Made by a program: the position numbers and the translations under genes. The notes beneath the pieces were generated by a model, which saw only the letters and a program-made list of their open reading frames with translations, was not told the origin of the DNA and ran no database searches. A DNA stretch of 55,472 nucleotides, filler included, from Jimgerdemannia flammicorona (taxonomy: Eukaryota): assembly GCA_003990765.1 (NCBI GenBank). It is 3 parts of 3 records of this genome, joined end to end, with 100 filler letters (N's around TTAATTAATTAA, not from the genome) between each part and the next. Parts side by side here need not be neighbours in the genome. Positions count along the whole stretch, not along the records: positions 18,531 to 36,952 come from RBNJ01002213.1; 2 more parts are not named here. The stretch is one strand, 5' to 3'. Positions 844 to 39,682 of this stretch are shown piece by piece; the first letter of the stretch is position 1, and every line of letters starts with the position of its first letter.

Positions 844-850
844 ACGCAGA

Positions 851-1520: not shown

Positions 1521-1532
1521 TAATTCACCACT

Positions 1533-6933: not shown

Positions 6934-7001
6934 AGTATTGTGACTGATATCTTGAGAGGTGTCTTGATAAGACTAGGTGTAACTTAACCACTGCTACCAA
7001 G

Positions 7002-7395: not shown

Positions 7396-7871
7396 AACTA
7401 AGATAGTAATAGTTGCTGCCATTATGGCTACCTGAGCTATAAGGTCTAGAATCTGTTAGTTTGCTATGTTGTTTATTAGAGGTGATTTAACTACTGATAG
7501 TAGTATTACTGATACTACTTAAGATACTGGTGTAGAGTGTAATAGTGTTCTTTAAGTCTATTGTCATGTAGTGGTCGCTGAGTCCTTCAAATATACCAGA
7601 TTCTCTTCAAGGTGTATCTCTTAGACTAACTCAAGTTGTTATAAGCAAGTTCTTATTGGAGTGCCTTCCCAAGGTCTTATAGTCCTCAAACTTCTTATCT
7701 TTTAACTGTCTTGTTATCTTTTAGATTGCTTGTAAGGAAGTGTGTATATTGCACTGAGAAGACTGACTTTATTTCAGAGGAAATAAGAGAGGTATTTATA
7801 CAAAATATAATTCAATGGCTGCTAAGATATAAAGCTAAATATAAATTCCAATAACTAAAACTACTAAGTTT

Positions 7872-8037
7872 CAGGGCTGGCATTATTTAGTGTCACATCA
7901 AAATACCAGTGCTGGAACAATTTCACGTCACCTCAGAATGCCAGTGCTGGCATTATCCAGTATTACATGAGAATACCAGTGCTGGTATTATCCAGTATTA
8001 CATGAGAATACCGGTGCTGGCATTATCTAGTGTAACA
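7872..8037. repeat. 35-bp tandem repeat in LTR-C between ORF and TATA box
   Basis: About 5 units of CCAGTGCTGGCATTATCCAGTATTACATGAGAATA. Confidence 0.85.
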
Positions 8038-8043
8038 AAGAAC

Positions 8044-8847: not shown

Positions 8848-9096
8848 TTTGTTTGTAGTAAGTCTTTGAGCTATTTTGGGATTAGTGGTTCTTGTTGGTT
8901 GCTGCTACTGCAGTTCCTTGATCCTTCTTTTATATTCTTCAGGATGCTCATGCTGTGGTCACAATGACTCACAGTTGGTCATCATTGCTTATCTCATATG
9001 CCATATGACCTTCTTGTGCTCTGATCTGGTGGCTTATAAGGAAAGACTGTCTCCTGTGCTGATGTCATCATTCTGGGGTCACTGTTACACTGTATA

Positions 9097-9958
9097 AGTT
9101 GCTGGAGTAATAGTTGTGAGTCTGGAGTAAGGGCTTGATAGATAGCTATCTATTGCTATATAGGTATATTTTGTCCTAATAGAGGTGTATCTTCTTCAGT
9201 AGTATCTCTGAGATTGAATTTACTGAGATACTCCTCCTCCTCTTGGCTTTGACTCCATGTAGTTGGGTTTTCTCAGCATCAAAGTAGATAGAATCAGTTA
9301 TATATCAGATTTTGGATGGGCTTAATTCAAAGTCTAGTCTGGTTCAGTATTAGTCTCAGTTTCCAGTAGAGTTATAGCTGGGCCTGCTTCTGGTTCAGAG
9401 TCAGATTATTCATAAAGAGTTTCTCTTACTTCTTCTTTAAGAATATAGCAGGCCTTATAATTCTGGAAGTGATAGTATAAGGCAGTCTTGGTCTTGGTAT
9501 GGTGAAAGTTAGTAGAGTTAAGCCACTTAGCTATAGAGGCTTGGGCTTTATAAGAAACTAAGGTCAAAAAGATAGCTGCTGGTTGTCCTAGGTTGCTCAG
9601 GTTTGTAAAGCTGACAAAACTCTTATTAAGAAGAGTAAAAATGGCTTCTATAAGACCTTCTTCATCTTGACTTGTGAGTGTAGAGCACGGAGTTTAATAA
9701 ATAGAGTTTCACTTATCTGCTGATTTAATTGGAGTACTTCTTTTTGTTAATAAAGTCTGTTCTACTTATTGTAGGTATAGAGGTCAAATTGTCCTTATAC
9801 ATCAGGTTCAATTCTCTTCAGATTGTCAGATGGTTCAGAATAAATTCCAGTTCAGAGATTGGGCTTTATACTAACTTATAGAAATTCTCATAGAGGTTTG
9901 TAGCAGGGTGAGGAAGTATCTTGAAGTAGAATTAGATTGTAAACTACTGCTATCAAGT
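9097..9958 (-). mobile_element. 5' internal region of LTR-B element with PBS
   Basis: TTGATAGCAGTAG PBS-like motif at about 9945-9956. About 9530-9958 is the reverse complement of 48915-49089 plus 54858-55160. Confidence 0.7.
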
Positions 9959-11984
9959 TATAAGAGAGTTACTTATTAAGATAACCATTACATAGTTCTG
10001 AGAGGGTTTTCTGAAAGTTCTGGATATTCTGAAAGACTATTTTCTTTAGGTCAAGATCAATTTTATATATAGTATGTCCTCTATGCTTATTGATTTTAAG
10101 ATCAGATTAATGTCTCAACCAAAGTCCTTTTTCAGACTAGTTCTGAATGTTCAGAATTTTCTATATTTCAGAAAGTTCAAGAAACTAAGACCAGCTTAGT
10201 TGATTTGGTGTATCACTGCAGACAATATCCAACTAGGAAATTTCATAATATGGTTAAGAGTGGGACCTAAAGAGTTCAGATTTACTTAAGAGTAGTTTGT
10301 GAGTTATTAAATAGGTTTATTCACTATTCATGATATTGCTATACTAGGAGTAGTTATATAAAGGAATATTGTAAGGAAGTGTTCAGGATTGTTTTTGTCT
10401 ATTTGAGTCTGAGATTCTAAAATCTGGGAGAAGGGATATTTATACTAGTGGAAGGCTATCTTAACTAGGCTGAATATGGATATAGCACTTAGTGCCTTGT
10501 TGAGTCAGAATGCAGTCACATAGTATAAGTGTGATCTGACATATCAAGAGATCATCTGACTACTGAGTTAGTTTACAGTTACATCATATGAAGCTAATCT
10601 AACTATACTAATGACTGCTAGGCTATCTATAGATTTAGATACTGTTTGAATAGTCTTTGATTATATTACTATTGATAATATCATCTCTGATAAAGTAGTC
10701 ATTTAGAAAGAGTGGTTCTTAGATTACTTCTCTCTATTTATTCAGATAATAATATATTAAGACCTCATCACCATTCCATAGGATAGCATCATCTGTTTCA
10801 TATACTGAATAAGATATTGATAAACAAAGGAGAGGTATATTATCTTTACTTTTATCAGATTTGCTATCTGTATACCTTTTATAGATTATAGTACTATATG
10901 TTACTGAGTTGTAGTAAGCTAGTGGCTGTTGTTCATATTACTTATACTTAGGTGATGGAGTTGTCAGTTCGATTTCAAGAGTTGTCTGGAGATACAGGTT
11001 GTATTCTCTAGTCTCTTCATTATAGTTGAAGTAATTGAGAGTAAATATAAGTTAGTACTCATACATACCAGTGATCATTGTTCCAATAGGTCTTATAGAT
11101 AGTTATAAACTGTTATAGGTTTATTGGTAAGGTTGGCAGGGTAATCAGGATTGATAGAAATCCTTGGCTCAAGGTCATGTCAGTATCAGAGGGATTATTA
11201 TCTTTTACTTCATCATCATCAAATCAGATTATAGCATAAACATCCTTCATAGCATATTCAACTTGGGATATTTGTAGAATGTGGTCATTGGGGTGTAAGA
11301 AGATTCTGTCTATAGTTTAAACATACTCAATATACTTGTGGTTGAGTTATTATACTATATTATCAATTTGGCCATAAGATAGAGTAGTAATCATTTTAGT
11401 AGTAATAACTTAAAGATAGAAAATAAAGGAGCTATACTTATAAAAGAGTTCTTGGTATTTATGGGTGATAAATTTCTGATATTGAGACATCTGGATAATG
11501 TTTATATCATAGTAGTGTTTGACTATATCTTCTAGGAGATAACTGATCTGATAGTAGCTTGAGATTTGTCTGATTTAGTGAATCTTACTAAGTATATTCA
11601 GAGTATTCCATTGGGTTTCCATAAAGTAGAGAGGTACCAGACTATGAATATTCATAAGAGATAGAGAGAGTATAGCTTGGTTGACAATGGCATTCCAAAT
11701 GTCAGTACAGATACAGTTGTAGATATATTGTTCAAGAGTTATGATTATTTGTTTTATTTGTTATAGTTCTCTATTTTGATATATCTGAGAATTGGGTATA
11801 TATACATTTGGTTCTAATTGATAAGATTTTATTTATATAAATCTTATATTCTATGACTTTAAGTTGACTTAGCTTTATATACTATGACTTTGGTTTAACT
11901 CAGCTTTATAATCTTATATATGATTTCCAGATTTATTCAGAGAGTGATATGTAATTTCAGTAGCTTGGAGGTTATACACTTATA
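9959..11984 (-). repeat. LTR-B, about 2.0 kb 5' LTR with decayed internal ORF (about 10620-11740)
   Basis: Reverse-complement copy of 22703-24789 over its whole length, adjacent to the PBS. Confidence 0.85.
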
Positions 11985-12169
11985 TTTTGATATAAAGAAG
12001 TCTATTATTTTGATCTACTTATCAGATTAAACCTAAAGAGAAGTTCACTATATTTTGATATAACTAAGCTAGTCAGCCAGACAAACCTTTATAGTGAACT
12101 TATTCATATAAATAAAGCAGATAACTGATATAACTTTATTTATAAAAAGAAGTCTGCTGATTTTGATAT

Positions 12170-13596
12170 TGTAATATATCCAGCTCAATGGAGACAAATT
12201 ACAAGGTTGGGGTTGATATAGTTTGGCTTGAGCCCCTAGTTACTTTGTTAAAAGCAACAAAATGTTCTTGATATTTAGTGGTATAATAGTTAAAGCTAGA
12301 TATCTGCAAGTGATTTATATGTCTATTTTCTAATTAGGACAGTTCTCTGGGTATAGTGGCAATTTGGATATAGTGCAGACATTTCTTATACATAATGGTC
12401 TGGCAATTTGACAGTTCTCTTTATATAATTTCTGTATAATAATCTCTGTGTAGTATAACAATCTTTAAAAGTATATGATTTCTGCATAATAATATCTTAT
12501 ATAGTGTGATGATCTCTGTATAGCATAGCAGATTTCTTATGCAGGATAATCTTGATGATATTCTTTATGTAGATTTGACAGATAACTTGATTTGGTGTAG
12601 ACTCTCTTAAATTGGATTCACTGGGAGTAGAGAATGGTACAGATCCTTCCTGAAACAGCTTTACTGGGAATTATACTAGCAGCAGATTCTTCCTAAATTA
12701 GGCTTACTAAGAATAAACTAATAACTCAGATGGTGTGAATAGCTCAGATAACTCAGATATCATGGATCTTCCTGAATTAGTAGAGTATATTACTTAGGTA
12801 GTATGAATTCTTAGCAAGTTGTATCAAAGACTGGCTTTATTTGCACAGAGTTACATTATTGGACTGGCTCTACTGTAAAGTTGTATTAAGAAACTGGCTT
12901 GTGGCAAGGTTCCTTAAAGCAGGCTCTCTGGAAATGCAAATAACTTAGAAATGGTAGCTTATTCCTTAAGTGGTAGATTACTCAAAAGGCAGCAAAGTTC
13001 TTTCTTGAACTTTGACAGTAAATCTTCAGACTTATCTGATAAGTGAACCAAAAATAGACTTGTTCTTTATATTGAAAAGTAGACCAGAGTGGGAAAAGGT
13101 AAAGCTCACAATCTCCTAGTAGTAGCTGTAGAGTTCCTCTTAAAGTATGATAGGCAGACTTGTCTTTTGCTTTGAATTCAGACTTTTCAGACTCTTCTTT
13201 ATATTGAAAAGTGAACCAGATTTGAAATATATTCTGAATTTTGGACTAAGGTTTATTTACTCTTGTCTCTGAGGTATTTTATACATTGTGGTTACTATCT
13301 AGTTACTATATTGCTAACTATAGATTGCTATATATGACAGATATACTAGTTTGACATAGGTGTGTAGGTCTAGCACAAGTGTACAGATCTAGTACAGATG
13401 TACAGATCTAGCACAGATGTGCAGGTCCTGCACAGATATACCTTATCTGATAGTCTGGCTATTTATACAGTTTTCCACAGCAATGATTGCTATGTCTGAT
13501 TACTATGCTATATGTTTATATTATATGGCTAAGTTACTAATTGTTCATGTCATCTGACTAAGTTATAATTCAGATAATATGTTTTGATTTGTCATA
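12170..13596 (-). repeat. Gypsy D 3' LTR (copy 1)
   Basis: Starts TGTAATATATCCAGCTCAA like 47242. Ends just before the TCAG...AAAG(A/G)ATGGTCTG internal sequence shared with 39683. Confidence 0.75.
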
Positions 13597-16500
13597 TCAG
13601 CCCACACTAAAGAATGGTCTGTCCTCAGACTGTCCTTTAGTCATCACCCCAGTGTGGGTAAGCATCTTCTATATCAATATCTATTCTATTATCTTTATCA
13701 TCTGTACCATAATTGCTCCATTCTAAGGGTTCTTCTTCTTCTTCTAGGAATAGGATGTTGACAGCATTGATGATGCTCAGGTAGATGGTCAGATTCATTC
13801 TTCATACATTACACCAGGGGAATTGTACTTATAACAAGGCTACAGAGTTACATTTATAAAGGATATAGAGCCTGTCTGCAGCAGTGACATCTCTTCTTGA
13901 TAGTTCTGTGGTATTTCTGATATATGTTTGTTCTGGGGCTGGAAGGTCTGCAATTGTTCTCCAATTATATAGTGGGCCTGAAGTTGATAGATCTGTAACA
14001 ATTGTCTAGCCAGAACAAAATTCTCTTGATGAATCTGAATTCTCTGGAGAGTGTTCCCATTGACTTCTCAGAATTGGGGTAGGAGAACTGGCAGTAATTA
14101 AAATGAGCTGAGGATAAGAGTCTGAAGGTAGTTGTCAACTCTCTGATTCATGATGTGGGAAAAGGTATATCTTGAGATGATTGATGTACACTAGTGTCCT
14201 CAGAGTTCATCCATCTATACCTCTTAAATAGATGCTGATTCCTCTGATGTTGTATACAAGATAAGATCCTTCCCATTTGAGCTCCAATTTGGTGACAAAG
14301 TTTATTTCAATTATGCTTCTCCAAACTAGTACTTGATCTCCAATCTTGATCTTCTAGTCCTTCTATTTCTGATCATAGTACTTCTTTTATCTTTCTTGGG
14401 CTTTGGTAATCTGAACTTAGGCCTGATTATGTAACTGTTCTGCCTTCTTGAGGAGGTCTCCAAGACTCTCATAGTTAGTAGTTCTGGTTTTTTTTGAGAA
14501 ATATCATTTCGAATGGCTTTTGTTTGGTAGAGGCAGTAGGGGTGTTCTGAATTTCCCATAAGATCTCAGGTAAGCAGAGATCCCAATTGGTAAGATTGAC
14601 TTGAGCAAGTTCTTTCTTAATGATCTGGTTCATTCTTTCTATCATACCATTAGTTTGATAGTGGTATGGTGTGGTCTATTTGAGGTAGATCTTGTGAATT
14701 CGAGCATAACTTATAATTATATTGTTGATGAATTCTATGTCTTGGTCAGAGATAAGTTCTTCTGGAGATCTATATCTGAGCATGAGTCTATGGAAAAAGT
14801 CTACAATAGTTAAGGTATCTGTGATTTCCATTAGAAAAGCCTCAGGCCACTTAGTCAGATATTCTATAAATACAAGAATATATTTATTTCTTTTTGGTGT
14901 AACTGGTAGGGGACTAATTATATCTACTCTCCATCTCTGAAAGATGTTGTCTGATAGTGTGATTGGTTATAGCAGTGCTTGGTAGTTCTTCCTTCCTTAG
15001 TACTTCTGGCAGGTGTCATATTTCTTAAGTATGTCTCAGACTTGTATTCTGAGATTAGGTCAATATTGGTGTGTTGTTCACAACTTTTTTTCTATATTTG
15101 CTTGTTCTTGGTGGGCTTTCTAGTATTCCTTTTGGATGAGATCTTCTTGTGCCTTAATGGTCTAAGAAGCTTCCTTTAGGGTATAGTTCCTCAGGACACC
15201 CTTTTTCTGATTCATTGGGGCTGGTGGGAAAGTACATCAACATTGTTGTAAGCTTTCTCTGCTTTGTGGATGATGGTGATTTTGTAATCCTAAAGGATAA
15301 GGATCCAGCAGACTAGGATTATGGTGGGTTCCTTATAGTTAAATAGCCATTTGAGGGCTGCATGGTCTGTAATCAGGATAAACCTTTTTTCAATGAGATA
15401 ATGCTTGAATAGGGTGACCACCCATATGACTACAAGGTATTCTAGTTTGGTGCTGCCATAGTTCATCTGCTGCTGATTGGTAGCTCAGCTTGTATAAGCT
15501 ATTACATAGTATTATTTGTCAGGTCTTTCTTGGGCTAGAACTGCTCCTAAGCCATCTTTAGAAGTATCTGTATATAAGATAAATAGCTTTTGTGGATTGG
15601 AGCACACAAGAATTGGTGCTATGGTCATATGGTTCTTGAGTTCTTTGAAGGCTTTCTCTTGTGATTTTGTCTATTTGTAAGATACTCCTTTCTTGAGAAG
15701 AACTTGGATTGGGGCAGCAATTTGGGCAAAGTCCTTAATAAACCTTCTGTAGTAGGATACTAGTGTCAGAAATGATAGTGTTTTCTTTGGAGTCTTGGGT
15801 ACTGGCCAATTGTTGATCTTCTCAGTTTTCTTTGGGTCTGTATAGATTCCTTCTTTTGAAACTATAAATTCAAGGAATTCAAGTTTCTGTTTCCTGAAGT
15901 AGCATTTCTTTACATTGAGTCTTAGATAGTTCTTGTGAGTGAGCTTGAAGAATTCTTCTAGATAGTACAGGTGTTCTTCAAAATTTGCTGAATAGATATT
16001 GAAATTGTCCATGTATACAATTAGATAGTAGTAGATCAAGGGGGTATAGACTGAATTCATCATTCTCTAAAAGGTGGGAAGTACATTACAAAGTTCAAAG
16101 GATATTTGGAGATATTCAAACAGTTTTCCTAGAGCAAGGAAGGCTGTCTTTTGAATATCTTTGGGATCTCATAAAATCCTGCAAAAAGGTCTATACTGCT
16201 GAAGTATCTGGCATCTTGTAACTGATCCAAAAGGTCATCGATTCTGGGCAAAGGATAGGCATCCTTTTCAGTGACTGAGTTAAGTTTTCTGTAATCTATA
16301 TAGAGTCTCCATTCTTCTTTCTTTGGTACAATAAGTATAGGGCTGACCTAGGGGCTGATAGAGGGTCAGATAACTCCATTGTCTAAGAGTTCTTAAATGT
16401 GCTCCTTTTCGAATATTTTTAAAGTAATGAGGTATTCTATAGGGTTTCTGCTGAATGGATATTGTATTTTCTATATTTATGCTGTAGTGATATTATGAAT

Positions 16501-18031
16501 TGTATGGCAGGTTGCCATAATCAGTAGTGAAGATATCTTGATATTTTTTGAGGAGTTCTACTAGTTATTGCCATTGTTGGGGTGTCAATTCTTCTCCAAT
16601 GTTGGTAGAAGGCTTCACTGTCTCCTGGGTCGCAGAGGGGCCTTTCCTTTCTTCTGAGATCTTTTGCTGTTTCCTGATAGATTTAGTTCATAAACTTCTC
16701 TATGAGTTTGGTTGAGAAAAGGCACCAGATGCCCTATGATGGTTCTTTTTAGCAAAATGATAGTTTCCCAACCTTGGTTAGTTGCTTGGGAGTGTACTGG
16801 ATTCATCTTGTTGGAGAATGTGTGTCCCTCTATATCCAGGTGTGGGATATCTTTATTGGGTTCAAAGAAAAGGTTTCTGGGATCAGGTGGTGCAAAGATT
16901 TCAAAGGTAGTTTGTTCTCCAGGCTTCAGAATGAGATTCTTATACAGTTTGACTAGTTGGTGGTATACTTGCTGGGAGATATTCCTCTTGAGGTGGTTGA
17001 CTTGAAGAAGATATACTTTCTTCTTATCTAAACTTCTAAATCCTTTGGCTTGTCTTATTTCTTCAGTCAGTTCAGAGACTTCTTATAATTGTGGAATCTT
17101 GACCTTCATGAAGACTGCTTGGGCAATCTTCTGTCCTCTAATAATTCAGTACTATTCTGTACTACTGTTGTGTAGAATGACCTTGATTTCACCTGTATAT
17201 CCTGGGTCAATGATTCCTCCTTCTACAGTTATTCCTTATTTAGCAAGTCCAGACCTTGAGGTCAGTTAGATATAAACTCCTTGGGGTGGCTGTATGGCTA
17301 GTCTGATTCTGATTATGAATGTTTTTCCAGACTTGATAGATTCATCCTCCAGACTGTAAAGATCATATCCCATATCTTCTGGGTGGGCTTTGGTCAGAAG
17401 TTTGGCCTTGGGATGTAGCAGAGCATACTGGGCAATATCCATGCTGAGTTTGGGCTGTCCTAGGGCTGAAGCTCCACTAGCAGAGAGTCTCCAGACTCTA
17501 AAATTGAGGTGTGGCCATCTGGCTCCAGTAGAGAGGTCTTGGAGATAGTTGATTCCTCTTCTACCTGTAGGGTCTAGGGCTTCCATGAAGTTGGTGGCAT
17601 TCTCTACCCATTCTTGGTGGATTGTATGTCTGATAAGAGCTAGGATGTTTTCTTCTAAATTATAGATCTTGAGTTTCCTTCTTCCTGGCTTCTTGATCTG
17701 GCTTTTTCAGATCTGGTCTCTGTTGTCTCCTCTTTCTGATGTCTGCAGTCTCAGCAGTCTGAGTGTCTTCTATGGTTGCAATATCCCATTGCTTAAAAAT
17801 GCTGTCCCTAGTTATTGATCTCTTGTTGTCTCAGGAATCAGTACACATCTTGGTCATAAGTTGGGGGAAGAGTAGATAAGGAATATACTTCTGTTTGGAT
17901 GAAAAAGCCTTATTCTCTAAATCAGCTTTGCAATCTGATAGTAACTTCTTGGAAGGTAGTTAACTGTATAACTGTAGTTAGGGGTTCTGGTCTCTGAGGT
18001 CTCTATCTCTCCTGTTGGTCTAGTAGATAGC
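12170..18031 (-). mobile_element. Ty3/Gypsy family D copy 1 (dUTPase-RT-RH-IN-3' LTR), degenerate
   Basis: RT YMDNF at 15671-16063, dUTPase GYDLYS/RSGL/GIIDPGYTG at about 17110-17410, integrase core at about 14250-15060. Collinear with 38570-44150. Confidence 0.92.
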
Positions 18032-18430
18032 TGTAAGAGGGTTACTTTTTAGGGTGACCATTATGTAGTTCTGGAAGGGTTTTCTGGAAGTTCTGGATGT
18101 TCTGGAAGACCGTTTTCTTATGGTCAAGATCAATTTCATATGGAGTACATCCTCTACACTTATTGATTTCAAGATCAGGTTGACATCTCAACCAAAGTCC
18201 TTTTCTGGACTAGTTCTGGATGTTCAGGATTTTTCCATATTTCAGGAAGTTCAAGAAACTAAGACCAGCTTAGTTGAATTGGCGTATCGCTGCAGACAAT
18301 ACTCAATTAGGAAATTTCATGATGGGGTTAGGAGTAGGACCTAACAGGGAGCAGATTTACTTAAGAGTGGTTTGTGGGTTATGGAATAGGTTTATTTGCT
18401 ATTCATGATATTGCTATGCTAGGAGTATTT
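18032..18430 (-). repeat. LTR-B end inserted in Gypsy D, cut by assembly gap
   Basis: TGTAAGAGGGGTTAC... matches 9959-10350. Confidence 0.88.
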
Positions 18431-18530
18431 NNNNNNNNNNNNNNNNNNNNNNNNNNNNNNNNNNNNNNNNNNNNTTAATTAATTAANNNNNNNNNNNNNN
18501 NNNNNNNNNNNNNNNNNNNNNNNNNNNNNN
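18431..18530. other. Artificial contig spacer
   Basis: N-run containing TTAATTAATTAA (stops in all six frames). Confidence 0.97.
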
Positions 18531-18539: not shown

Positions 18540-18723
18540 TCCCACCCCCTATTCAATCCCCCTAGAGGGCCCCCCTAGAGGGCCCCTTCTTGATGAAAGA
18601 CCACTTTGTCTAACACTATCACCACCCTCCCACCACTCTGCTCACAGATCCTTACCACCAAACTGTGACGTCATCCCCCCTGAGGACCCCAACCCACCCA
18701 CCATCCAGTCAGCAGATCCCCCA
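18540..18723. repeat. Unclassified dispersed repeat (inverted copy at 55305-55472)
   Basis: GAAAGACCACTTTGTC...CCCTCCCACCACTCTGCTCACAGATC...CAGCAGATCCCCCA is the reverse complement of the window end. Confidence 0.8.
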
Positions 18724-18839: not shown

Positions 18840-19330
18840 TCTATCCATACTCACAATATCATCTTTCTTAGATCAGTGAGGATTCTCAGCATGCTGGAGA
18901 GGTAAAAGCATGGCATTGTGATACTTCCAGAGATGTCATTTAAGATTGTTGATATTGCCATCCTTTGATATATAGCTCTAAGTTGTATAATGGTTGCAAC
19001 TGATGAGCTTACTTTGTAAATTCTATTTGAATAGAGAGATATGAGACTATATTAGAACCTCAACCACTTACAACTGACCACCCACCCTTATGACTGATGA
19101 GACCAATTACTCCTATGAATGCAACTATTAGCACAATGTATAAAACTACCTTTGTGGTATGATTCCACACCCAGCTATCACTAGGTTTTGTTTTTATTTT
19201 TATTCTCATGCTTGTTGGTGATAATGAACTGATGGAGATATCTGATATGTATATCCTCTGATATATCCTCCAATATATCATCTGATGGTTCTGAGATTTC
19301 TTTTAAATATACTTCTTGATCTTTAGACAT
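18840..19330 (-). pseudogene. hAT transposase N-terminus with BED zinc finger (intron 19023-19149)
   Basis: SWVWNHTTK | NLQSKLISCNHY...SKDGNINNLK*HLWKYH fits the BED pattern W...CxxC...G-T-N-L-x2-H-L-x3-H once decay is allowed for. Confidence 0.75.
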
Positions 19331-20650
19331 TTTGAATGTTTGATGATAGCAGAGACTGGGAGCTTGAGTGAGAGGCTGAGAGCTGAAAAGTAGCTAGGAA
19401 GTGGCAAGCTAGGGAGTGGTAAACTGGGAAACAAGCTGGGGGGCAGTAAACTAGGGGGCAGGGAGTTGGGGGGAGGCAGCAAGTGGTGAGAAAAGCCAGG
19501 AACTGTGGGGCCTGGAACAGGAGTCAGTGAGCTGAAGGGCAGCGAGAGTGAGAGCAGCGAGGTAGCATGCAATAGCCAATGATCGATTGTGGACAGAGGA
19601 TGGATGAATAAATACACATGAGTGGTGAACTGGTACCCATCATGCAACTGCAAACAGCAAATATACTTTGGAGATTTAGCATGTTCTGCATTGAGCAAGG
19701 TTTGTAATGACATTTGAGCAAGGTTTATAGTACATTTGAGCAAGATTTGCAGTGAGGTTCGAGCAAAATTTACAAGCAAGATTAAAGTGAGATTTGCAAG
19801 TGAGATTTGCATGTAAGATTAAAGCAAGATTTGCATAAGTCAGGCTTTGCAAGCCTTGCACTTGCAAGCCTGGACAAGCTCAGTCACAAGCTGATATGAC
19901 ATGTATATAAGCTGATATCATGTGATATCAGCTATTGGCTGAGCTTGCAAGCACAAGGCTTGCAAAGCCTAGCTTATGCAAATCTCACTTGCAAATCTCA
20001 CTCAAACCTCACTGCAAATCTTGCTCAAATGTACCACAAACCTCACTCAAATATTGTTGCAAACCTTGCTCAATTGGGACTTATGCAGAACCTGCTGAAT
20101 CATACAGAGAGGAGTAGAATGTAGTGAGGAAAGCTCTGGATTGCAAGTGTAAGCATAAGTATAAGTGTAAGCATAAGCTTTGCTCTGCTCAGTCTGACAA
20201 GCTGATAATAAGCTGATATTATGTAATATCAGCTATCAGCTGAGTGGAGCAAAGCTTGTGCTTATGCTTACACTTATGCTTACGCTTGCAATCTAGAGCT
20301 TTCCTCACTGCATTCCACTCCTCTTGCATTCCACTCCTCTTGCGTTTCACTCCTCTTGCACAACTCTCACATATTCCTTCACCTCCCTCACCCTCATTTC
20401 TCAGATTGCAAACAACATACAATTTAGAAATGGGTTTTGAAAGAGATTTCGAAGAGATTCCAAAAGAGATTTCGAAGAGATTCAGAAAGAGCTTCTGAAA
20501 GAGATTTTGGAGAGATTCTGAAAGAGCTTCTGAAAGATGTTATAGCTTTTGAACATTTAAGATATTGAAAGCTTACTTTTGCCTCTTGTTCTTTTTGCCT
20601 CATCCTTCACTTCACCTCATCCTTCACTTCGCCTCACTTAATTCACCACT

Positions 20651-22027
20651 ATGTTGAGAAAACGTAGATATGACCACCTGGTCAATAAGTATTTACTTGG
20701 CCCCCCCAAGCTTGACGTGCTTTAGCTTGCTGTCCCAAAGCTCAGCACCCTAAAGATGCCCAGCTTGCTGACATCCAGTCTGCTGAGCTTGCTGACACCC
20801 AGCCTGCTGAGCTTGCCAATACTCAGTCTGCCGAGCTTGCCAACACCCAGCCTGCTGAGCTTGTCAACACCCAGTCTGCTAAGCTTGCCGACACCCAGGT
20901 TGCTGAGCTTGCTAACTCTCAGCTCACTGACCCTCAGCTCCCCAATCTCCAGCTTGATTGCCAGCTCACCGCCAGTCCACAAGCACAAGGTCCCCCACCA
21001 GATCTCAATAATGCAGCTCGAAAAAGTTAGTTTTTTTTTTTTTTTTCTTTTTAAATCAATGTCTGAATTTTTTTCCTAATAACATTCGAAATATACATAT
21101 CCTCTAGCTTCTAAGCCTGGGCCGGAGTGCAAATCTTGCTACAATTGCCATTTTTGCCATCAAGTTTGCTCAAATACTACCTGGAAGCATTGCCAAACTA
21201 ATTTCCCAGATGCTCCAAACCTCACAGAGAAAAGGCCTTACAAATTGGACATTAGGCATGCTTTTGCTGTGACCAACAAACACATTAAGAAAGTACATGA
21301 TGACCAACTGAGGCAAGAAGTCATAAGAGCAATAGAAAACTGTACAAAAATCGTGGAATGTTTGTCATACTACACTGGCTTCAAGGTGAATACCAAAGTA
21401 TGGAATAAGCGAGGTTGTCCAGATGGAATTGTCATCATGGATGAACATGAAAAACTGCTGGCCATATTTGAACAAGTACTGGTGAAGAACAACAAAATAC
21501 TTTATATATAACTGATAGATGGTAGGCTTGTGCATTTTGTTGAGGGGGGTGGTGGTGGAGGAGATGGAGAGGTGAGAGAGATCAGTGCCAGTAGAGGAGT
21601 TGGCACCAGTGGAGAGGTTGGTGGAGAGGTCGGCATGGGGGAGGTCAGTGCGGGGGAGGTCAGTGCAGAGGAGGTCGGCATGGGGGAGGTCAGTGCGGGG
21701 GAGGTCGGTGCAGAGGAGGTCGGCACAGGGGAGGTCAGCATGTAGGAATATGGAGAGGTCAGTATGGGGGAGGTCGGCATGGAGGAACATAGAGAGGTCA
21801 GCATGGGGGAGATCAGTGTGGAGGAACATAGGGAGGTCAGTGTGGAGGAACATGGGGAGGTTGGTGTGAAGGACAAAATGGGGGTTGGCATGGAGGAGGA
21901 GGATATAGAGGAAAGTGGTTTGGAATATATAGAGAAAGATGGTTTGGAATATGAGAAGGAGGAGGATCAGTTGGTTTATAGTGATGAAGATGAGGAGGAT
22001 TAGTTGGTTTATAGTGATGAAGAGTAA
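20651..22027 (+). pseudogene. Second gene of hAT element, copy 2
   Basis: Same ATG context (ATGTTGAGAAAACG), same intron, same SCYNCHFCHQVC motif and acidic tail. Confidence 0.6.
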
Positions 22028-22702
22028 GATCTATTCACACTAGTAAGGTCTTTATTTTCCTGATTTACTTTCTATTTATTTCTGATTTCATTTTGATTTC
22101 TGATTCCTAATTATGTTTCTATTTGTTTATTCTAAATATATATCTTAGATGTGTAATATATTTTTTTTGGTGCCTTGTAGCTTAAAGGCAGATTAAAGAT
22201 GGGTCTGTGTTGGGTTAAATATAGGTCAAGATCAGGTCACATACATTTCTCAGGTTGGGTCATGTATATTTCTTGAGTCAGATTATGTATATTTCTCGGG
22301 TTGGGTTAAAGACGGGTTATGTATAATTTCGGGTCGAGTTAAAGACAGGTGACATATGTTTCCAGGTAGGGTTAAAGATGGGTGATATATAATTCCAGAT
22401 CAGGTTAAAGATGGGTGATGTATTATTCTGGGTCAGGTTAAAGATGGGTGACATATTATTCCAGGTCGGGTTAAAGACAGGTGACATATAATTCCAGATC
22501 AGGTTAAAGACAAGTGATGTATAATTCCAGATTAGGTTAAATATATACACAGGTTGGCTCAGGTTGTGATGCACTAACTATGAGCATACCACTTTCTGAA
22601 AAAATAGACTTTACCAGACTTTTGACCTCCCAAATGGTATAACAACAATAGGACAAATTAGAAGGCTCCAATGAGGATGTTGAAAGCTAAAAAGGGGAGA
22701 GT

Positions 22703-24789
22703 TGTAAGCACACAACCCCCAAGCCACCAAAATCACATGTCACCCTCTGAACAAGCCACTGAAATTACATGTGACCTTTAAACAAATCTGGAAATCACCT
22801 GCAAAGATCACGAAGCTGAGTCAAACCAAAGTCACAGCATACAAAGCTGAGTCAATATGAAGTCATGGAACACCAGACTCATACAAACAGGATCTTATCA
22901 ATCAGGACCAAATGCATATATACTGAGCACTAAGATATATTGAAACAGAGAACCAAAACAAACAATAACCACAACTTCTGAACATATACAAACATGACCA
23001 CTGAGATCTATAACTACATCCATGCTGACATTTGGAATGCTATTGTCAACTGAGCCACTCCCCCTCTGCCCCTCATAAATATCTATAGCTTAGCACCTCT
23101 CTACTTCGTGAAAGCCTGATGGAATGCCCTGAATATGCTTAGCGAGGTCCACTAAATCAAACAAATCTCAAGTTACTATCAGATCAGCTGCCTCCTAGAA
23201 GACATGGTCAAATACCACCATGATATGGATATTACCCAGATGTCTCAATACCAGAAACTCATTGTCTGCAAACATCGAGAACTCTTTTATGAGTACAGCA
23301 CTGTTATTCCCCATCTCTGAGTTACTACCAGCAAAATGATTGCTACCCTATCCTATGGCCAAATCAATGATATGATACAAGAACTCAACCACAAGTATCT
23401 CAAATATGTCCAGACTACAGACAGAACCTTCCTGCACCCTGATGACCACATCCTACAAATGCCTCAAGTTGGATATGCTATGAAGGACATCTATAATATA
23501 ATCTGGTTTGATGAAGATGAAGCAGAAGACAATAATCCCTCTGATACTGATATGACCTCTAGCTAAGGATCTCTGCCAACCCTGATTATACCACCAATCT
23601 TGCCAATGAACTTGCAATAGTTCATAACCACCTATGAAACCTACTGGGACAATGACCACTAGCATGAATACCAACTCGCATTCATCTCTGATTACTTCAA
23701 CTATAATGAAGAGACTGGAGAATACAATCTATACCTTCAGACAACCCTCGAGATTGAACCAACCACTCCACCACCTGAGTATGAGTGACATGAACTACAG
23801 CTGCCAGCTTACTACAACCCTGCAACTCATAGTGCTGTAACCTATAGAAGGTATGCAGACAGCGAATCTGATGAAAGCGAAGATGATGTACCTCTCCTTT
23901 GCCCACCAATACCTTATCCAGCATACAAGACAGATGATGCTATCCTGTGGAATGGTGATGAAGTTCCAATGTATTATTACCTCAGTGAATAAGGAGAAGT
24001 AATTCGCAAACCACTCTTCCTAGATAACTACTTCATCAGAGATGATGTCATCGATGGTGATATCATTGAAGACTACCCAGACAGCATCTAACTATAAATA
24101 GCTTAGCAGTCATAGTATAATTAAATTGGTCTTATATGATGTGACATAACTGTAAACTGACTCAGCAGTCAGACAATCTCTTAACATGTCAGATCACACT
24201 TGTACTACATGACTGTAATCTGACTCAGCAAGGCACTAAGTGCTACATCTATATCTAGTATAGTCCAGATAGCCCCTCACTAGTATAAATACTCCCTCTC
24301 TCAGATCTCAGAATCTCAGACTTGAAGACTTGAATAGACTCAAACACACAAGAACACTCCTGAATACTTCCTTACAATATTCCTTTACACAACTACTTCT
24401 AGTATAGTAATATCATGAATAGCAAATAAATCTATTTAATAACCCACAAACCACTCTTAAGTAAAACTGCTCCCTGTTAGGTCTCACTCCTAACCCTGTC
24501 ACGAAATTTCCTAATTGGGTATTATCTGCAGTAATATGTCAATTCAACTAAGCTAGTCTTAGTTTCTTAAACTTCCTGAAATATAGAAAATCCTGAACAT
24601 CCAGAACTAGTCTGAAAAAGGACTTTAGTTGAGACATCAACCTGATCTTAAAATCAATAAGCATAGAGAATGTACTCTATATGAAATTGATCTTGACCTT
24701 AAGAAAACAGTCTTCCAGAATATCCAGAACTTTCAGAAAACCCTTCCAGAACTACATAATAATTATCCTAAAAAGTAAACCCTCTTACA
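22703..24789 (+). repeat. LTR-B, 2087-bp 3' LTR preceded by polypurine tract
   Basis: AAAAAGGGGAGAGT then TGTAAG...CTTACA. TATA box TAGTATAAATAC at about 24281. Confidence 0.9.
22994..24091 (+). pseudogene. LTR-B-encoded ORF, about 365 codons, unknown function
   Basis: One frame from ATG 22994 to TAA 24091 with no frameshift. Three internal stops checked read CAA in the 9959-11984 copy. Confidence 0.78.
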
Positions 24790-25120
24790 CTATTGCAGAG
24801 TAGTGAGAGAGAGACAATAGTGATGGATTGCCCCTTTATCAGTATCAGATCAGTGTCTTCTCCACTTTTTTGCAGTTTCTAGTACCTTTGGCTACATCTG
24901 GAGTGTATCTATTTTGATGTAATGCCTTCTTCTTTTTGCTGTTGCCAACAAGGTGCTGTCTCAGTATATCATGGGCTATGTAGAGAGTCAGCTGACCTTA
25001 AGCATCAAGTGCTTAGTGTAGGTTACCTATAGGTCCTCAGTACCTGTGGTGGGGCTCTCTGACTTTGGTAAGCTTTCTGGCAAGCACAGTTTTGACATAG
25101 GTGACTGCTTTTCAGATATT
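24790..25120. repeat. Unclassified dispersed repeat (direct copy at about 35997-36330)
   Basis: CTATTG(C/T)AGAGTAGTGA...GACAATAGTGATG...GCTTTTCAGATA shared. Confidence 0.75.
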
Positions 25121-25329
25121 GTTGGGATGGGAGGGGAGATAGCTATCATAGATAAGAGAAAGAGTGATAATGGTGAACCAGTAGGGTATTAGGCTGTAGG
25201 CAGTTGTTAGGGCTGGGGCAGATGCTGCTTCAGTGGGGCCTTTTGATTGATACAGAGTAGTTAGATAGTAGGTGTCACTCTTAGCTTCTTTTAGTGATTT
25301 GGTGGGTTGGGCCTCAGTCATTAGGGGGG

Positions 25330-29827: not shown

Positions 29828-30976
29828 TTAATTGACAGATGTTTCATCTTCCCTCAGAGAATTCATCCACCCCAACACGGCTGTAAAGACTATAATAACC
29901 AGGAGGAATACGAATAAGACGATTTTCCAGTGACGTGTTGCCACCGACAACCAGCGTGCAATCCTTCTATTCTCCTGAAGCAAATACTGCTCCCTCTGAC
30001 GAAGCTGCTCAACTAGTACCCGCTGTTGTTCTTCTCTATGAAGAAACCCCTCAACCATTACCCGCTGTTGTTCTCCCCTTCGAAGAAGCTCTTCAACTGT
30101 GACTCCATTAATCACGTCCGTAGCGAAAACCTCGGGGAGAAGAACCCGGATCTCTTCAACATTCATACCGAGATCAGTCAGGTCCCCACGAAGGGCATCT
30201 AATAGGGCTCCACGGTTACAATCCGCTCCCGGGCCGCGAAAATATTCAAGTAGGTGGCCTTGCCGCCGACGGTTGTGGTGCATTTTCCACTGCTCTTCGG
30301 AAATGAAAACGTTCCCGTGTTCAGCACGCACGTGCTCGTGGGCATCACCACCACAAGAAGCAAGGCAGATGGCACAGAAAGCATTGAAAAGGGGTGGACA
30401 ATTCGGGCAATAGAGGGCGCAGCACCCGGTGAAGTCGACGAAGGCCATCTTGCAACAAGGGCGCTTGATGGTGAGGATGTTGTCGAGGACATGCATCCGT
30501 CGGCGCTCAATGTCGTCGTGGGGGGAAAGTTGAGGAATCTGTCGCGCGTCCTCAGCCAGATATTGTTGCTGCATTCTCTCTGTGAACACCTCTAAAACAC
30601 TGTTCAGGTTGTTGAGGATGAGGCCGGCAGCGACGGGAGGCAGATGAGCAGCGATATCTCGGAGGGGGGCAAAGGTAGGGGCGTCACAATTGGATATGGG
30701 ACATGGGAGCTTTAGGCGGTGGGTTTGGATGTTCTCGATGTTGGCTCGTGACTCAAAGTAGTTTCCGAGACACTCATCACAGATGAAATGTCCGTCAGGG
30801 CATGTCAGTCCCTCATCGGTAGGCTTATCTTCAAAGCAGATGCAACAATGGGCGAGATTTCTCTGGCCCAGTTCATCGGAGCCACCGCCGCCATCTCTCG
30901 GCTGCAAGGGATGATCCTTAACAGGAAGACGTGGCCGGTTTTGAGTTCTTCGACTTCTTTCAGCTGGGTCAGTCAT
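29828..30976 (-). CDS. RBR-like E3 ubiquitin ligase (RING1 + IBR/Rcat-type domain, coiled coil, C-terminal TM helix)
   Basis: CCICFED...CPDGHFICDEC...CPISNC RING, then DFTGCCALYCPNC...FCAIC...HEH, an E/Q/R-rich helix and IVLFVFLLVIIVFTAVLGW. Intact 382-aa ORF. Confidence 0.88.
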   Translation of the reverse strand: MTDPAERSRRTQNRPRLPVKDHPLQPRDGGGGSDELGQRNLAHCCICFEDKPTDEGLTCPDGHFICDECLGNYFESRANIENIQTHRLKLPCPISNCDAPTFAPLRDIAAHLPPVAAGLILNNLNSVLEVFTERMQQQYLAEDARQIPQLSPHDDIERRRMHVLDNILTIKRPCCKMAFVDFTGCCALYCPNCPPLFNAFCAICLASCGGDAHEHVRAEHGNVFISEEQWKMHHNRRRQGHLLEYFRGPGADCNRGALLDALRGDLTDLGMNVEEIRVLLPEVFATDVINGVTVEELLRRGEQQRVMVEGFLHREEQQRVLVEQLRQREQYLLQENRRIARWLSVATRHWKIVLFVFLLVIIVFTAVLGWMNSLREDETSVN

Positions 30977-32237
30977 ATTTGCGGACTTAGGATTGTATTA
31001 TTTCGAGAAATTTAAGCAAATGGTGGTTATGTTCAAAGAACAGGGTTAGACTTTCCGTTCTTGGCCAGCATCGCATGGTCAGAAAACAAAATGTTCTTAC
31101 TGGAAGCTGCGATGCAATAAATATTCTGTTGTGCTTTGGAAGATAAGTGGCAAATAATAGTAGAGATTTTAATCTCTATCAACGTAGTCTTCCGGAGTAG
31201 TGTGTGTGCTGTGGCGTGTCGGTGTCGGAGTAGGAAAAATCACATGATACCTCAAAGGACGCCAATCAACTTCACCGTTTATATTAGACTAGTATGGGTA
31301 ACGTGATGGGGTTAGAATGTTTTACAATACCCGTTAGATTGTGTGCGCAAATACCCTATGAATACAACAGTATGCTAGTAACTCCGCCGTGTATAACCTC
31401 ATTGAAGGTATCGTGGTTGTTATTCCAGTTCTAGTATTGTTATGTCTGTCACTATAATACAAGGTCCAAGGTGAGCACTTCGGCAACGTGAGCGACAAAA
31501 AAATTTTGTTCCAGATACTTCTTTCTCGCTCAATAATAAACCTTCCCATACATCCTGAGACGTATCGTTAACCACACACACACCTCGACTTATTATGCTA
31601 GTGAGAGAATTTTGCAAGATTCAACAACTCTCCCACTTTGTGAACTGTCACCCTCACACCGAGGCTGCTGAAGAATGAAGTTCTATAAAATACAAATCCT
31701 TTCACTTGTAACATTTCTATAAAGTACTCTGAGATAATAATAGCTATCCGCCATTTTAACACTCAACCAGCTTTACTTCCTCCAATTACTTTATACACCA
31801 GACTGCATATATTTCTCTGATGTTTACTTTTCTCTCTCCACCTATGATAAATCTGTATTACTTTAAGCAAACTTATTATCTCCTCTTCTAATATTATTCA
31901 TCTTACAGCACTTCTTTCTAATACTTAAACCTCTCAATTTACTCTATTATTATAGTTATTACTACTATATATTCTATTATATTAGATCAGTTTTTACACT
32001 TTTATAACTCTACTTTCTCAAAATTACTAATATTTATATTCTTATCTAAGATATCATTTATAGTTATATTAAGTAAAATATAATTATAATATTTTAGTAT
32101 TTTTTAAATATTTAAAAATTTTCTATTAGTTATATTTAATTTTATTAAAATATCTAATACAAATTTAAAAATCTATTATAATTAGTTATATAAATCCAAA
32201 ATAGCTAATAATAATAATAATAAAAGTACTTATATTA

Positions 32238-36601: not shown

Positions 36602-36952
36602 GAGATAAGCGGAGATAAAGGGGGAGCCAATCCCAGTTGCAGGATAAAAATCACAAACAAACACAAACAAAACAAATCCAAATCGAGATTAAAAAACATC
36701 CTTGCCCCCTCCGGGGTCTCGCGCTCGCTCCGGGGTCTCGGCCTTACTCCGCTCCCCTCCGCTGCCTTCGGCCCCTCGCTTCGCTCGGGCTCGCTGCGGC
36801 TCGCTCCGTTTCGGCCTCACCCCTCGCTCACGCTCACCCCTCCGGGGTCTGCGGATGTTTTTTAATCTCGATTTGGATTTGTTTTGTTTGTGTTTGTTTG
36901 TGATTTTTATCCTGCAACTGGGATTGGCTCCCCTCTTATCTCCGCCTATCTC
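36602..36952. mobile_element. Young foldback/MITE-like element
   Basis: About 100-bp near-perfect inverted arms (36602-36701 and 36853-36952) around a GC-rich GCTCGC/GCTTCG spacer. CpG intact. Right end abuts the gap. Confidence 0.75.
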
Positions 36953-37052
36953 NNNNNNNNNNNNNNNNNNNNNNNNNNNNNNNNNNNNNNNNNNNNTTAA
37001 TTAATTAANNNNNNNNNNNNNNNNNNNNNNNNNNNNNNNNNNNNNNNNNNNN
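36953..37052. other. Artificial contig spacer
   Basis: N-run with TTAATTAATTAA. Confidence 0.97.
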
Positions 37053-38160
37053 GGAATTCCCATTTTGAAGCCTCTCTTAGATGTTACGACGAGATGGAGT
37101 TCTATACATGAAATGTTAGTGCATGCTCTAGAGATTTGTAAGGTAAGATTTTGAATCTATTTGTATAGATTTTGGAATACAATTCAGAAGTATTTTGGTA
37201 CTAAATAAATTGATATTACATCCAAATAGGGCTTGGATATATTGTGTGCTATGGATAAGCAAATGAGCGATATATCTGAAGATGCATGGCAACAATTTGA
37301 ATTGATTTGCCAATTTCTCGAACCTTTTGCCAAAGTGACAACTGTGATGTCAGCTTTGAAGTATCCTATAATAGCGGCTGTTATCCCACTATTTAATCAG
37401 CTATGTGATCACCTCGAAGATGTCATCGATATATATCAAACTAGTGAACATTTTAATCAGGTATATATATGATTTTGAAAGTAATTTTATTTGTGAATTT
37501 AGGAACTAATTTAGTAAGTAATTGGGAAGTAATATGTGTATATTTTTATTTTTTATAGATAATGCTTACCACTGCTGAGAATGCACATACGAAACTTCTA
37601 AAGTATTACTGCAAAATGACACCATTATACAGCATAGCTTTGGCCTTAGATCCACATATCAACATGCATTATTTCTGTCATGAGCAATGGAAAAAATCCT
37701 TAATTGATGAATGGAAGAATCAGATGGAACGTATCTGGGAAAAGGAGTATAAGCCTGTTAATGCTATCATTATATCCTCAATATCTCATGATGCCAATGA
37801 TTTTATCAACTCAATATATGAGAAGAAACAGCGTGTTGATGTGGATGATGAGCTTGAATGGTGGGTGTTGTTTTTATGTTTTTTGATTGGCTTGGTTAAT
37901 TTTCACTCATATTTCTCTGTTTCAGTTATTTATCAGAGAATTCAGCTGATCCTCATATAGATATACTGGATTGGTGGTGGCGAAATCAGTCAGTATATCC
38001 TAATCTTTCACGAATAGCTTGCAATTATCTTGCTATTTCGGCAACATCTGTTCCATCTGAACATATTTTTTCTATTACTGGTGAGCTAGTGACTGAACAT
38101 TGAAACAGCTTGTGTGTAAATACAATTCGTGCATGTATGTGTTTGGATTCTTAGTGGTCT
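37053..38160 (+). pseudogene. hAT transposase C-terminal part, spliced (introns about 37143-37229, 37461-37558, 37861-37925)
   Basis: LDVTTRWSS, FLEPF, KLLKYY, ALDP and dimerization domain ILDWW...YPNLSRIA..YLAISATSVPSEHIFS. Confidence 0.9.
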
Positions 38161-38569
38161 TCAGATATTTTTCACTTTCAATTACTCTGAATATTATCCA
38201 AATATTTTCCGAATCATTTTTTCAGAGCAGAGTTCAGAGGGTCAGGTTCAGGGTCGGATTCAGGGGTCGGGTTCAGGGTCAGGTTTAGGGGTCAGGTTCA
38301 GGTTTGGGTTAAGGGTAAATAATGGGTCGGGTGACATACATTTCCAGGTTGGGTTAAAGATGGGTGACATATTATTCCGGGTCAGGTTAAAGACGGGTGA
38401 CATATAATTCTGGGTCAGGTTAAAGATGGGTGACGTATAATTCCGGGTCAGGTTAAAGACGGGTGACGTATAATTCTGGGTTGGGTTAAAGACAGATGAT
38501 ATCTAATTCCGGGTTGGCTGTTTTATGGGTCGGGTTTCGGGTTAATCAGGTCGGGTTTGCAGAGCACTA
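37053..38569 (+). mobile_element. hAT transposon 3' end, inserted in a Gypsy D LTR
   Basis: Transposase followed by 33-bp subterminal repeats and the GCACTA terminus. Confidence 0.88.
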
Positions 38570-39682
38570 GTTCTAAGATTCCTAAGATTCTTGGTGTTTA
38601 GTAGTATAATAGTTAAAGCTGGATATCTGTGAGTGATTTTCTTATTGGGACATTTTTTGGATATAGCAGTGATTTTGTATGATATGGGTATTTCTTATAA
38701 TCTGGCAATTTGGCAGTTCTTCTTATATAATTTCTGTATAATAATCTCATATAGCACAATGATCTCTATATAGTATAATGAGTTCCTTATATGATTTGGC
38801 AGATAACTTAATTTGGCATGAATTCTTCTGAATTGGGCTCACTGGAAATAAAGAGTAGCACAGATTCTTTCTAAATTAGTGACTCACTGGAAATAGATGA
38901 ATAACTTAGATAGTATGAATAACTTAAATAACTCAGATATTGCAGATTCTTTCTAAATTAGTAGCTCTCTGAGAATATAAATAACTTAAAAATAGTAGAG
39001 AATATGGATTCTTTCTGAATCAGCAGACTTCTTAAATAACTTGGATTCTCTTGACAAAGTTATATTAAGACTAGCTTTATTTGTATAGAGTTATATTAGA
39101 TAGACTAGCTCTACTGTAAAGTTGCATCAACAAACTGGCTTTATGATAAGAGAGATTTCAGGCTTATCTAATAAGTGAACTAAAATATAGTAGACTTCTC
39201 TTAAAAACAGTGGCTTATTTCTTAAGTAGTAAATTACTCAAATAGCAGCAAAGTTCTTCCTTAAACTCAGCAGTTTCTTTAAGCTTATCTGGTAAGTATA
39301 CTAATCAATCTTTATATTAGAAAGTAGACCAGAGTGGAGAAAAGAGACCAATGCTCAATCTTTAGAGACTTTTTTAGTTTACTTCAACTTTTTGGACTAA
39401 GGTATATTCACTCTTATCTCTGGTGTATTTTATACAATTATGATTACTATCTGGTTACTATGTTGCTAACTATAGATTGCTATCTATGGTAAGTATTTTT
39501 GAATAGTACAGTGTACCCACTCAGTATAGTATATCTACTTAATACAGATAAACATACTGTTTCTGATATCTCTGACTAATTATATAGATTGGTACAGTAA
39601 AGCAGTCTTGATTGCTTAGTATACTAGATATGGTATATGGCTAATTTATGAATTTGGTGATACAATTCTATTGTTCATCACA
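38570..39682 (-). repeat. Gypsy D 3' LTR (copy 2), end cut by hAT
   Basis: Direct repeat of about 47340-48471, ending TCATCACA. Confidence 0.88.

Follow-up and report, generated by a model that had tools for sequence, protein, structure and literature searches.

Does the long terminal repeat (LTR) of a fungal Ty3/Gypsy retrotransposon carry a protein-coding gene of its own? The question is raised by a stretch of 55,472 nucleotides from Jimgerdemannia flammicorona (the window, by which we mean the whole stretch of DNA that was analyzed), in which a 2087-bp repeat unit contains a sense open reading frame (ORF) of 365 codons. We consider it probable that this 2.09-kb unit is the true LTR of a dUTPase-bearing Ty3/Gypsy retrotransposon and that a 365-codon sense gene in the middle of U3 accounts for its length. 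From comparison with outside sequences we conclude that in active relatives of the two full copies in the window the frame 22994-24091 probably is, or was until recently, an open gene of 365 codons.

Borders and context of the repeat unit

The unit is present in the window in four copies (A to D). They are given here with the sequences that adjoin them, element 1 being the retrotransposon that follows copy B and family 2 a neighboring Gypsy family.

22703-24789, plus strand: LTR copy A, in 3' LTR position, with other DNA beyond CTTACA
9959-11984, minus strand: LTR copy B, 5' LTR of element 1, 79% identical to copy A
48471-48914, plus strand: LTR copy C, final 440 bp only, then sequence like a primer-binding site (PBS) and leader (48915-49089)
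18027-18430, minus strand: LTR copy D, final 400 bp, cut by the N gap 18431-18530
9935-9958, minus strand: PBS-like sequence, one base past the end of copy B; the same at 48915-48938 past copy C
11985-12169, unstranded: AT-rich DNA, 185 bp, between copy B and the end of a family-2 Gypsy element, unlike the sequence upstream of copy A
3400-9934, minus strand: internal part of element 1, with leader, 286-aa ORF, Ty3 capsid, zf-CCHC, dUTPase, protease, reverse transcriptase (RT) and RNase H
19203-22702, plus strand: non-coding region of ~3.4 kb, rich in tandem repeats, ahead of the polypurine tract (PPT); second copy at 1-3328

Copy A (22703-24789, plus strand, 2087 bp) starts with TGTAAG and ends with CTTACA, which gives it a 6-bp inverted terminal repeat. 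The 13-nt PPT, AAAAAGGGGAGAG, lies at 22689-22701 on the plus strand and is separated from the TG of copy A by one base. These features bear out the original prediction that a PPT followed by TGTAAG...CTTACA defines a 3' LTR. It had further stated that the same 2 kb recurs inverted at 9959-11984 next to a PBS, and this was also found: in a BLAST comparison of the window with itself, 9961-11967 paired with 24787-22752 in inverted orientation with 79% identity over 2045 columns, and a PBS-like site follows the LTR end. Only transitions separate the termini of copy B (TATAAG...CTTATA) from those of copy A, and C>T/G>A mutation has gone further in copy B, which has a GC content of 30% as compared to 39% in copy A.

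In LTR orientation, the sequence CTTGATAGCAGTAG... and the leader adjoin the end of copy B after a gap of one base, an arrangement common to copy C. The PBS-like sequence thus recurs after copies B and C; the window has no tRNA gene with which complementarity could be compared. Because the PBS-like site, leader, gag and the rest of element 1 come right after copy B, this copy occupies a 5' LTR position, and because the PPT and the 3.4-kb non-coding tandem-repeat region come before copy A, the latter occupies a 3' LTR position. The unit was found once in the 3' context and twice in the 5' context. The likeness of copies A and B stops exactly at the TG of TGTAAG, and beyond the 185-bp AT-rich stretch next to copy B lies a family-2 Gypsy LTR that starts with TGTAAT at 12170. 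As for the short copies, the upstream part of copy C has been replaced by a family-2 element, the LTR of which ends in ...CATCACA at ~48468, and the shortness of copy D is due to the N gap with its TTAATTAATTAA linker and is not a biological truncation.

Pfam scans of 225 stop-to-stop frames of at least 60 aa (122 + 103) gave the domain order of element 1 as Ty3 capsid, zf-CCHC, dUTPase, RVP_2, RVT_1 and RT_RNaseH, with truncation before the integrase. The order RT, RNase H and then rve is visible in the window only for the neighboring family-2 element. The dUTPase of element 1 directly follows the zinc knuckle of gag and precedes the protease. We infer that 19203-22702 represents the 3' internal region of the element. 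Altogether, it is well supported, judging from sequence organization, that the whole 2-kb unit, with the frame included, behaves as a Ty3/Gypsy LTR.

Three observations concern the internal sequences. A dUTPase domain is present in both Gypsy families (5675-6181 and 17269-17706, both on the minus strand), with no detectable DNA likeness between the families. Between the leader and the capsid of element 1 there is an open frame of 286 aa (8047-8904, minus strand) without a Pfam match, which is either a very long gag N-terminus or another extra ORF upstream of gag. Tandem repeats of 33 nt and 24 nt form arrays in the non-coding region ahead of the PPT at 2939-3370, 22220-22585 and 38202-38600, and also at 2439-2680 and 21713-21897; the third of these arrays adjoins the family-2 element at 38.5 kb.

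Coding capacity of the frame

The frame was followed in both full copies of the unit, as listed here.

22994-24091, plus strand: ORF in copy A, 365 codons and a stop, with nine in-frame stops and no frameshift
10638-11724, minus strand: ORF remnant in copy B, with 11 stops, a 4-nt insertion and the start codon deleted

An in-frame TGA at 22979 makes the ATG at 22994 the first ATG after a stop. This ATG lies 291 bp into the LTR, and the stop codon of the ORF is at 24089-24091. The original prediction described a single frame from 22994 to 24091; the lack of a frameshift was confirmed, while the extent of decay had been understated, since copy A has in-frame stops at codons 20, 42, 54, 109, 191, 209, 223, 265 and 333. 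Four of these nine (codons 54, 109, 265 and 333) are stops in both copies. The remaining five are sense codons in copy B, namely CAA at codons 20, 42 and 191, the three positions at which this had already been proposed, CAG at codon 209 and TGG at codon 223. In copy B, the 4-nt insertion comes after the counterpart of base 23661, and the ATG is lost in a deletion of 17 nt. Among the 10 insertions or deletions (indels) that distinguish copies A and B inside the LTR, 1 falls within the ORF and 1 more at its last base.

Transitions account for 373 of the 444 differences between copies A and B. Of the cytosines, 92% differed in CpG, 48% in CpA, 48% in CpC and 14% in CpT context, a pattern that was mirrored on the other strand. 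The spectrum resembles that of repeat-induced point mutation (RIP) or is methylation-linked, in an apparent Mucoromycota fungus, and the two copies diverged by neutral decay. The window as a whole is a nest of decayed transposons with an observed/expected CpG ratio of 0.22, and both full LTR copies in it are dead.

Evidence that the frame codes came from outside the window. An exhaustive HMMER search of 1.84 billion representatives, NCBI and UniRef records included, returned three matches, of which two (P0003 and P0004) were real; the third, P0005 (E 2.8e-5), is a tandem-repeat protein and was dropped as spurious. A word-indexed search of 5.8 billion clustered proteins returned P0003 only at near lengths and P0004 only at shorter lengths, and P0003 used as the query in this search returned only itself. 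P0004 (128 aa, on a JGI/IMG contig of 1180 nt) is 80% identical to residues 1-128 of the window frame, with 87% positives and no gaps. It starts with MTTEIYN, as the window frame does, and in place of each of the four N-terminal stops it has Arg, as expected from CGA to TGA/TAA decay. P0003 (247 aa, on an ENA contig of 998 nt) is 64% identical over residues 115-365, with 80% positives and two gaps, both in-frame, and has the same C-terminus, YPDSI. At the base composition of the segment, a run of 247 codons would stay open by chance with a probability of ~9e-7, and one of 128 codons with a probability of ~7e-4. Because two metagenome proteins, independent of each other, keep this frame open, one with the same start and the other with the same end, the ancestral frame appears to have been open. 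Further searches returned no relative of P0003 or P0004 among metagenome contigs, and among viral contigs none for P0003 and one reported relative for P0004. With P0003 and P0004 as tblastn queries, only copies A and B were found in the window, with no paralogue in its other elements or LTRs.

Soil metagenomes provided additional evidence. Logan contigs from four runs (X1-X4) of three studies were aligned to 19200-25200 at 80% likeness or more; run X1 gave 3664 contigs, 257 of them at least 99% alike. At the codon 191 stop (position 23564), contigs had C in place of T in 492.9 of 494.9 of the depth in X1 and in all of the depth in X2-X4, which restores CAA. The codon 265 stop (23786) reads C for T, hence CGA, in 163.2 of 343.4 of the depth in X1, 22.8 of 22.8 in X2 and 86.5 of 111.3 in X3, and the codon 333 stop (23990) reads C for T, hence CAA, in 374.9 of 405.7 of the depth in X1. 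Codon 54 is CGG in a loose end at 23152. These letter differences are among those listed, and a further 781 rows lie beyond them. Likewise, the body of the ORF is free of the indels listed (12 of 36 rows), which occur at 22803 and 22977-22986, ahead of the ATG, and on the stop codon itself (24089-24091). The expectation that the ancestor was open was therefore upheld by two open metagenome proteins and by soil contigs that read C at three stop positions. Summed contig depth also steps at the LTR borders, from 88 to 586 across 22617-22817 and from 1601 to 224 at 24828, which fits an LTR, contig depth being unable to rank its parts. A sequencing-run lookup for the LTR listed no RNA run that contains it. 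Overall, the outside sequences indicate that coding status is well supported; in other soil copies the frame appears to be still open over parts, and the element seems to have kept the gene while it was active.

Candidate promoter signals, putative protein product and alternative explanations

The sites that bear on expression of the ORF are as follows.

22815-22854, plus strand: GCTGAGTCA 9-mer, two exact copies (at 22815 and 22846) in a 31-nt tandem duplication, 100 and 69 bp before TATATA
22917-22922, plus strand: TATATA, 77 bp upstream of the ORF ATG, candidate TATA box of an ORF promoter
24093-24100, plus strand: first TATAAATA, right after the ORF stop codon
24158-24229, minus strand: GCTGAGTCA 9-mer, two exact inverted copies (at 24158 and 24221) in a 24-nt repeat, 126 and 63 bp before the TATAAATA at 24284
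24284-24291, plus strand: second TATAAATA, presumed TATA box of the genomic RNA, in the likely U3/R border region
24425-24430, plus strand: AATAAA, presumed polyadenylation signal in R

The original prediction placed the ORF upstream of a TATA box at about 24281; TATAAATA was located at 24284, with a second one at 24093, and because the ORF lies upstream of both it is assigned to U3 by position. In the genomic RNA, U3 is represented only at the far 3' end, and the ORF would therefore need a message of its own. The GCTGAGTCA 9-mer, the core of which, TGAGTCA, is the basic leucine zipper (bZIP) site of the AP-1/Gcn4 type, occurs exactly four times in the 55-kb window, all in copy A, where ~0.4 occurrences are expected for a random 9-mer on both strands. 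Copy B retains three of the sites, each with one transition. The 7-mer TGASTCA is not enriched across the window (14 found, 10.5 expected).

An ORF message would most likely start from a second promoter that is located in the initial 290 bp of the LTR and composed of the two GCTGAGTCA sites and TATATA. It would mirror the inverted GCTGAGTCA pair and TATAAATA that may drive the genomic RNA, and it is because of this twin layout that we favor an ORF-specific promoter within the LTR, at which the motifs hint. The message would end at the AATAAA of the LTR itself, making every LTR, whether 5', 3' or solo, a potentially self-contained transcription unit.

As the original prediction had reported, no domain could be recognized in the product: Pfam returned 0 families at E up to 10 for the read-through ORF and for P0003, and a PDB sequence profile search returned 0 matches at E up to 1. 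The ESM Atlas gave no usable feature match for P0003, with a best structural TM of 0.30 and an Atlas pLDDT of 0.39. AlphaFold2 modeled the whole ORF product with a mean local confidence (pLDDT) of 30.1 and its N-terminal 128 aa, as an all-helical structure, with a pLDDT of 55.7; the N-terminal third may thus be helical, at low confidence. A Foldseek search of PDB with the N-terminal model found nothing at E <= 0.001. Its best match, Avd of a bacterial retroelement (E 0.48), was taken as a generic helical bundle. P0003 has a pI of 4.05, with 46 Asp+Glu and 10 Lys+Arg, 23 Tyr, 24 Pro and no Cys; its 247 residues, which correspond to the C-terminal part of the product, are very acidic and Tyr/Pro-rich and gave no usable fold model. 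Given this composition and the failed models, a regulatory or adaptor role seems a better fit for the product than an enzymatic one, and by the searches above the product appears to be an orphan that is restricted to this lineage. These results lend no support to the anti-silencing role suggested in the original prediction, nor do they speak against it.

Several observations weigh against an LTR-borne gene, and some of them suit other explanations. The window contains no complete element, so that no paired LTRs of one element and no target-site duplication could be shown, and the outside homologues are only two, each on a contig of ~1 kb. If the frame were not a gene, the metagenome proteins would be gene-caller output on chance-open LTR copies and the paucity of stops would follow from base composition. 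In copy A, the +1 frame has 9 stops, the antisense -1 frame 8 and the other four frames 17-41, and the stop count of this copy alone does not single out +1 as coding. The A-B differences by codon position (89/46/106) likewise reveal no constraint when compared with the context-expected values (88.8/52.1/91.7, p = 0.28), the excess at positions 1 and 3 being due to where C and G sit. The low AlphaFold2 confidence, and more generally the failure to obtain a structure model of usable confidence, point the same way. Nevertheless, we regard this explanation as very unlikely: open frames of 247 and 128 codons have the small chance probabilities given above, P0003 and P0004 both keep this frame open, P0003 with the end and P0004 with the start of the window frame, their replacements are conservative, and the indels avoid the frame.

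Another explanation is that the ORF is a passenger, i.e., a host gene or foreign fragment that was captured in the U3 of a founder element, amplified with it, and open by descent only, with no role in the life cycle. An orphan protein without a retroelement-type domain would fit this, as would the established tolerance of U3, the LTR part that best accommodates insertions. The last 400 bp of the LTR, moreover, have 2-4 times the summed contig depth of the ORF part, contig depth not being copy number, and with copy C, which lacks the ORF part, this suggests that ORF-less LTR variants may exist. We hold a passenger to be unlikely, because P0003, at 64% identity, is still open over 247 codons with in-frame gaps and the same stop, which is hard to obtain without purifying selection; no cellular parent gene was found in either protein collection searched; and a separate motif pair with TATATA precedes the ORF. 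The original prediction itself named a case in which only the last ~600 bp are the true LTR and the ORF occurs once per element. In a version of this case with an LTR of 400-600 bp, the ORF would be an internal 3' gene, and copy B would form the end of a second element, arranged in tandem upstream, with one LTR serving both that element and element 1. Two of the four window copies (C and D) do consist of only the last 400-440 bp, this part has the highest metagenome contig depth, and copy C lies, tandem-like, between tandem repeats of the 3'-internal type and a PBS. These points lose their force given that copy D is cut by an N gap and copy C by a family-2 element that ends exactly there. With a short LTR, copy B should have the PPT and repeat region on its upstream side, whereas the A-B likeness ends at the TG and unrelated AT-rich DNA follows, which excludes the case as originally named; in addition, no purine tract precedes 24343, and the TATA box would fall outside the LTR. 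We give a short LTR hardly any credence.

A more far-reaching version of the LTR-gene reading is that all LTRs of the family, solo LTRs included, act as autonomous genes, in which the bZIP-type enhancer pair and TATATA would drive a ~1.5-kb message for a 365-aa acidic factor that would transactivate the twin promoter 1.3 kb downstream or block methylation-linked silencing by the host. Motifs are the sole basis of the promoter model, which also counts against it, and we regard this extended version as possible but rather unlikely.

The remainder of the window has the following features. In the region 29831-30997 (minus strand), an intact gene of 382 aa (29831-30976) has RING/IBR-like cysteines and a hydrophobic C-terminal stretch, and it lies in an island of 43-45% GC amid DNA of 20-24% GC. 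It belongs to a common 90% cluster with RUO96851.1 of Jimgerdemannia flammicorona (Endogonales, Mucoromycota), a match that fits the occurrence of the LTR in soil metagenomes. A hAT transposase remnant is located at 37559-38100 on the plus strand (Dimer_Tnp_hAT, E 1.8e-15). The leader of the third element is interrupted by a 5.7-kb block at 49090-54855 (plus strand), in which G exceeds C to an extreme degree (skew +0.42 to +0.52). The minus strand of this block holds many open frames, none with a Pfam match, and related G-rich sequence is found at 18558-18723 and 55306-55472. The N gaps at 18431-18530 and 36953-37052 each have the form N44-TTAATTAATTAA-N44. Beside the second gap there is a 100-nt inverted repeat (36602-36701 and 36853-36952, 97% complementary), which may be an assembly artefact. 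Family-2 Gypsy elements are present at 38571-48471 and 12170-17986, both on the minus strand, with LTRs of ~1.1-1.2 kb that are 79% identical. The left family-2 LTR lacks its first ~100 bp, and the flanks are the tandem-repeat region on one side and the middle of the LTR of the ORF-bearing family on the other; this arrangement suggests recombination between two insertions with the loss of ~1.8 kb.

Comparison with known systems and implications

The closest parallel in layout is the sag gene of mouse mammary tumor virus (MMTV), which is likewise a sense ORF of ~1 kb that lies wholly in U3 of an unusually long LTR, is present in both LTRs and needs a non-genomic message. The two differ in other respects. 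A Pfam search with the read-through ORF and P0003, taken up to E 10, gave no likeness to Sag, for which Pfam includes a model. The ORF resides in a fungal Ty3/Gypsy retrotransposon, and no env was detected in the window. The product of the ORF is acidic, with no hydrophobic stretch seen by eye, no membrane-segment prediction having been run. The bel2/bet genes of foamy viruses and lentiviral nef are similar in being 3' accessory genes that are encoded partly in the 3' LTR. Foamy viruses have a second, internal promoter for their 3' accessory genes. In contrast to the window ORF, which is complete within any LTR, bel2/bet and nef start internally and merely overlap U3.

Among retrotransposons, plant Ty3/Gypsy elements are described as having extra ORFs of unknown function, including ORF1 of Ogre, env-like ORFs and the antisense ORFs of Grande, RIRE2 and Retand (PMC7264820). 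That review places these ORFs between the LTRs, mostly from pol to the 3' LTR, and its text does not use the wording 'in the LTR', 'within the LTR' or 'inside the LTR' (PMC7264820). As far as that source goes, plant and window ORFs are both extra ORFs of Ty3/Gypsy elements, the former located between the LTRs and the latter inside the LTR. dUTPase-bearing Gypsy elements are on record for Dikarya, i.e., PosPlaTy3 of Postia placenta, elements of Phanerochaete chrysosporium and Tmt1 of Tuber (PMC2864245). In the accessible part of that report no LTR-borne ORF is described for these elements, and the host here belongs to Mucoromycota rather than Dikarya. CERV of the Caenorhabditis elegans element Cer1 is reported to be a non-enzymatic accessory protein through which a Gypsy-type element supports its own RNA biology (PMC10309623); its resemblance to the window ORF product is a functional analogy only. 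A limited phrase search of open-access literature found no LTR-borne ORF in Gypsy or Copia elements, while MMTV sag and foamy virus came up. By this comparison, the LTR seems to be an unusual place for a transposon gene, in a layout that matches MMTV sag and goes beyond the U3-overlapping bel2/bet and nef.

Additional genes of LTR retrotransposons normally lie between the LTRs. A gene that lies wholly in U3 is present in two copies per insertion and remains in every solo LTR after the element has been deleted. Expression from the LTR would tie the dosage of such a gene to LTR copy number, and the gene would outlive the elements that brought it. Should every LTR in addition be an autonomous gene, the element would seed the genome with its own regulator in hundreds of copies, a layout that has, to our knowledge, its only precedents in the U3 genes of a few retroviruses and none among retrotransposons. 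The orphan occurs in an early-diverging, transposon-inflated mycorrhizal fungus, in a setting where almost nothing is known of transposon control, and its expression from the LTR would alter both how the gene evolves and how the host silences it.

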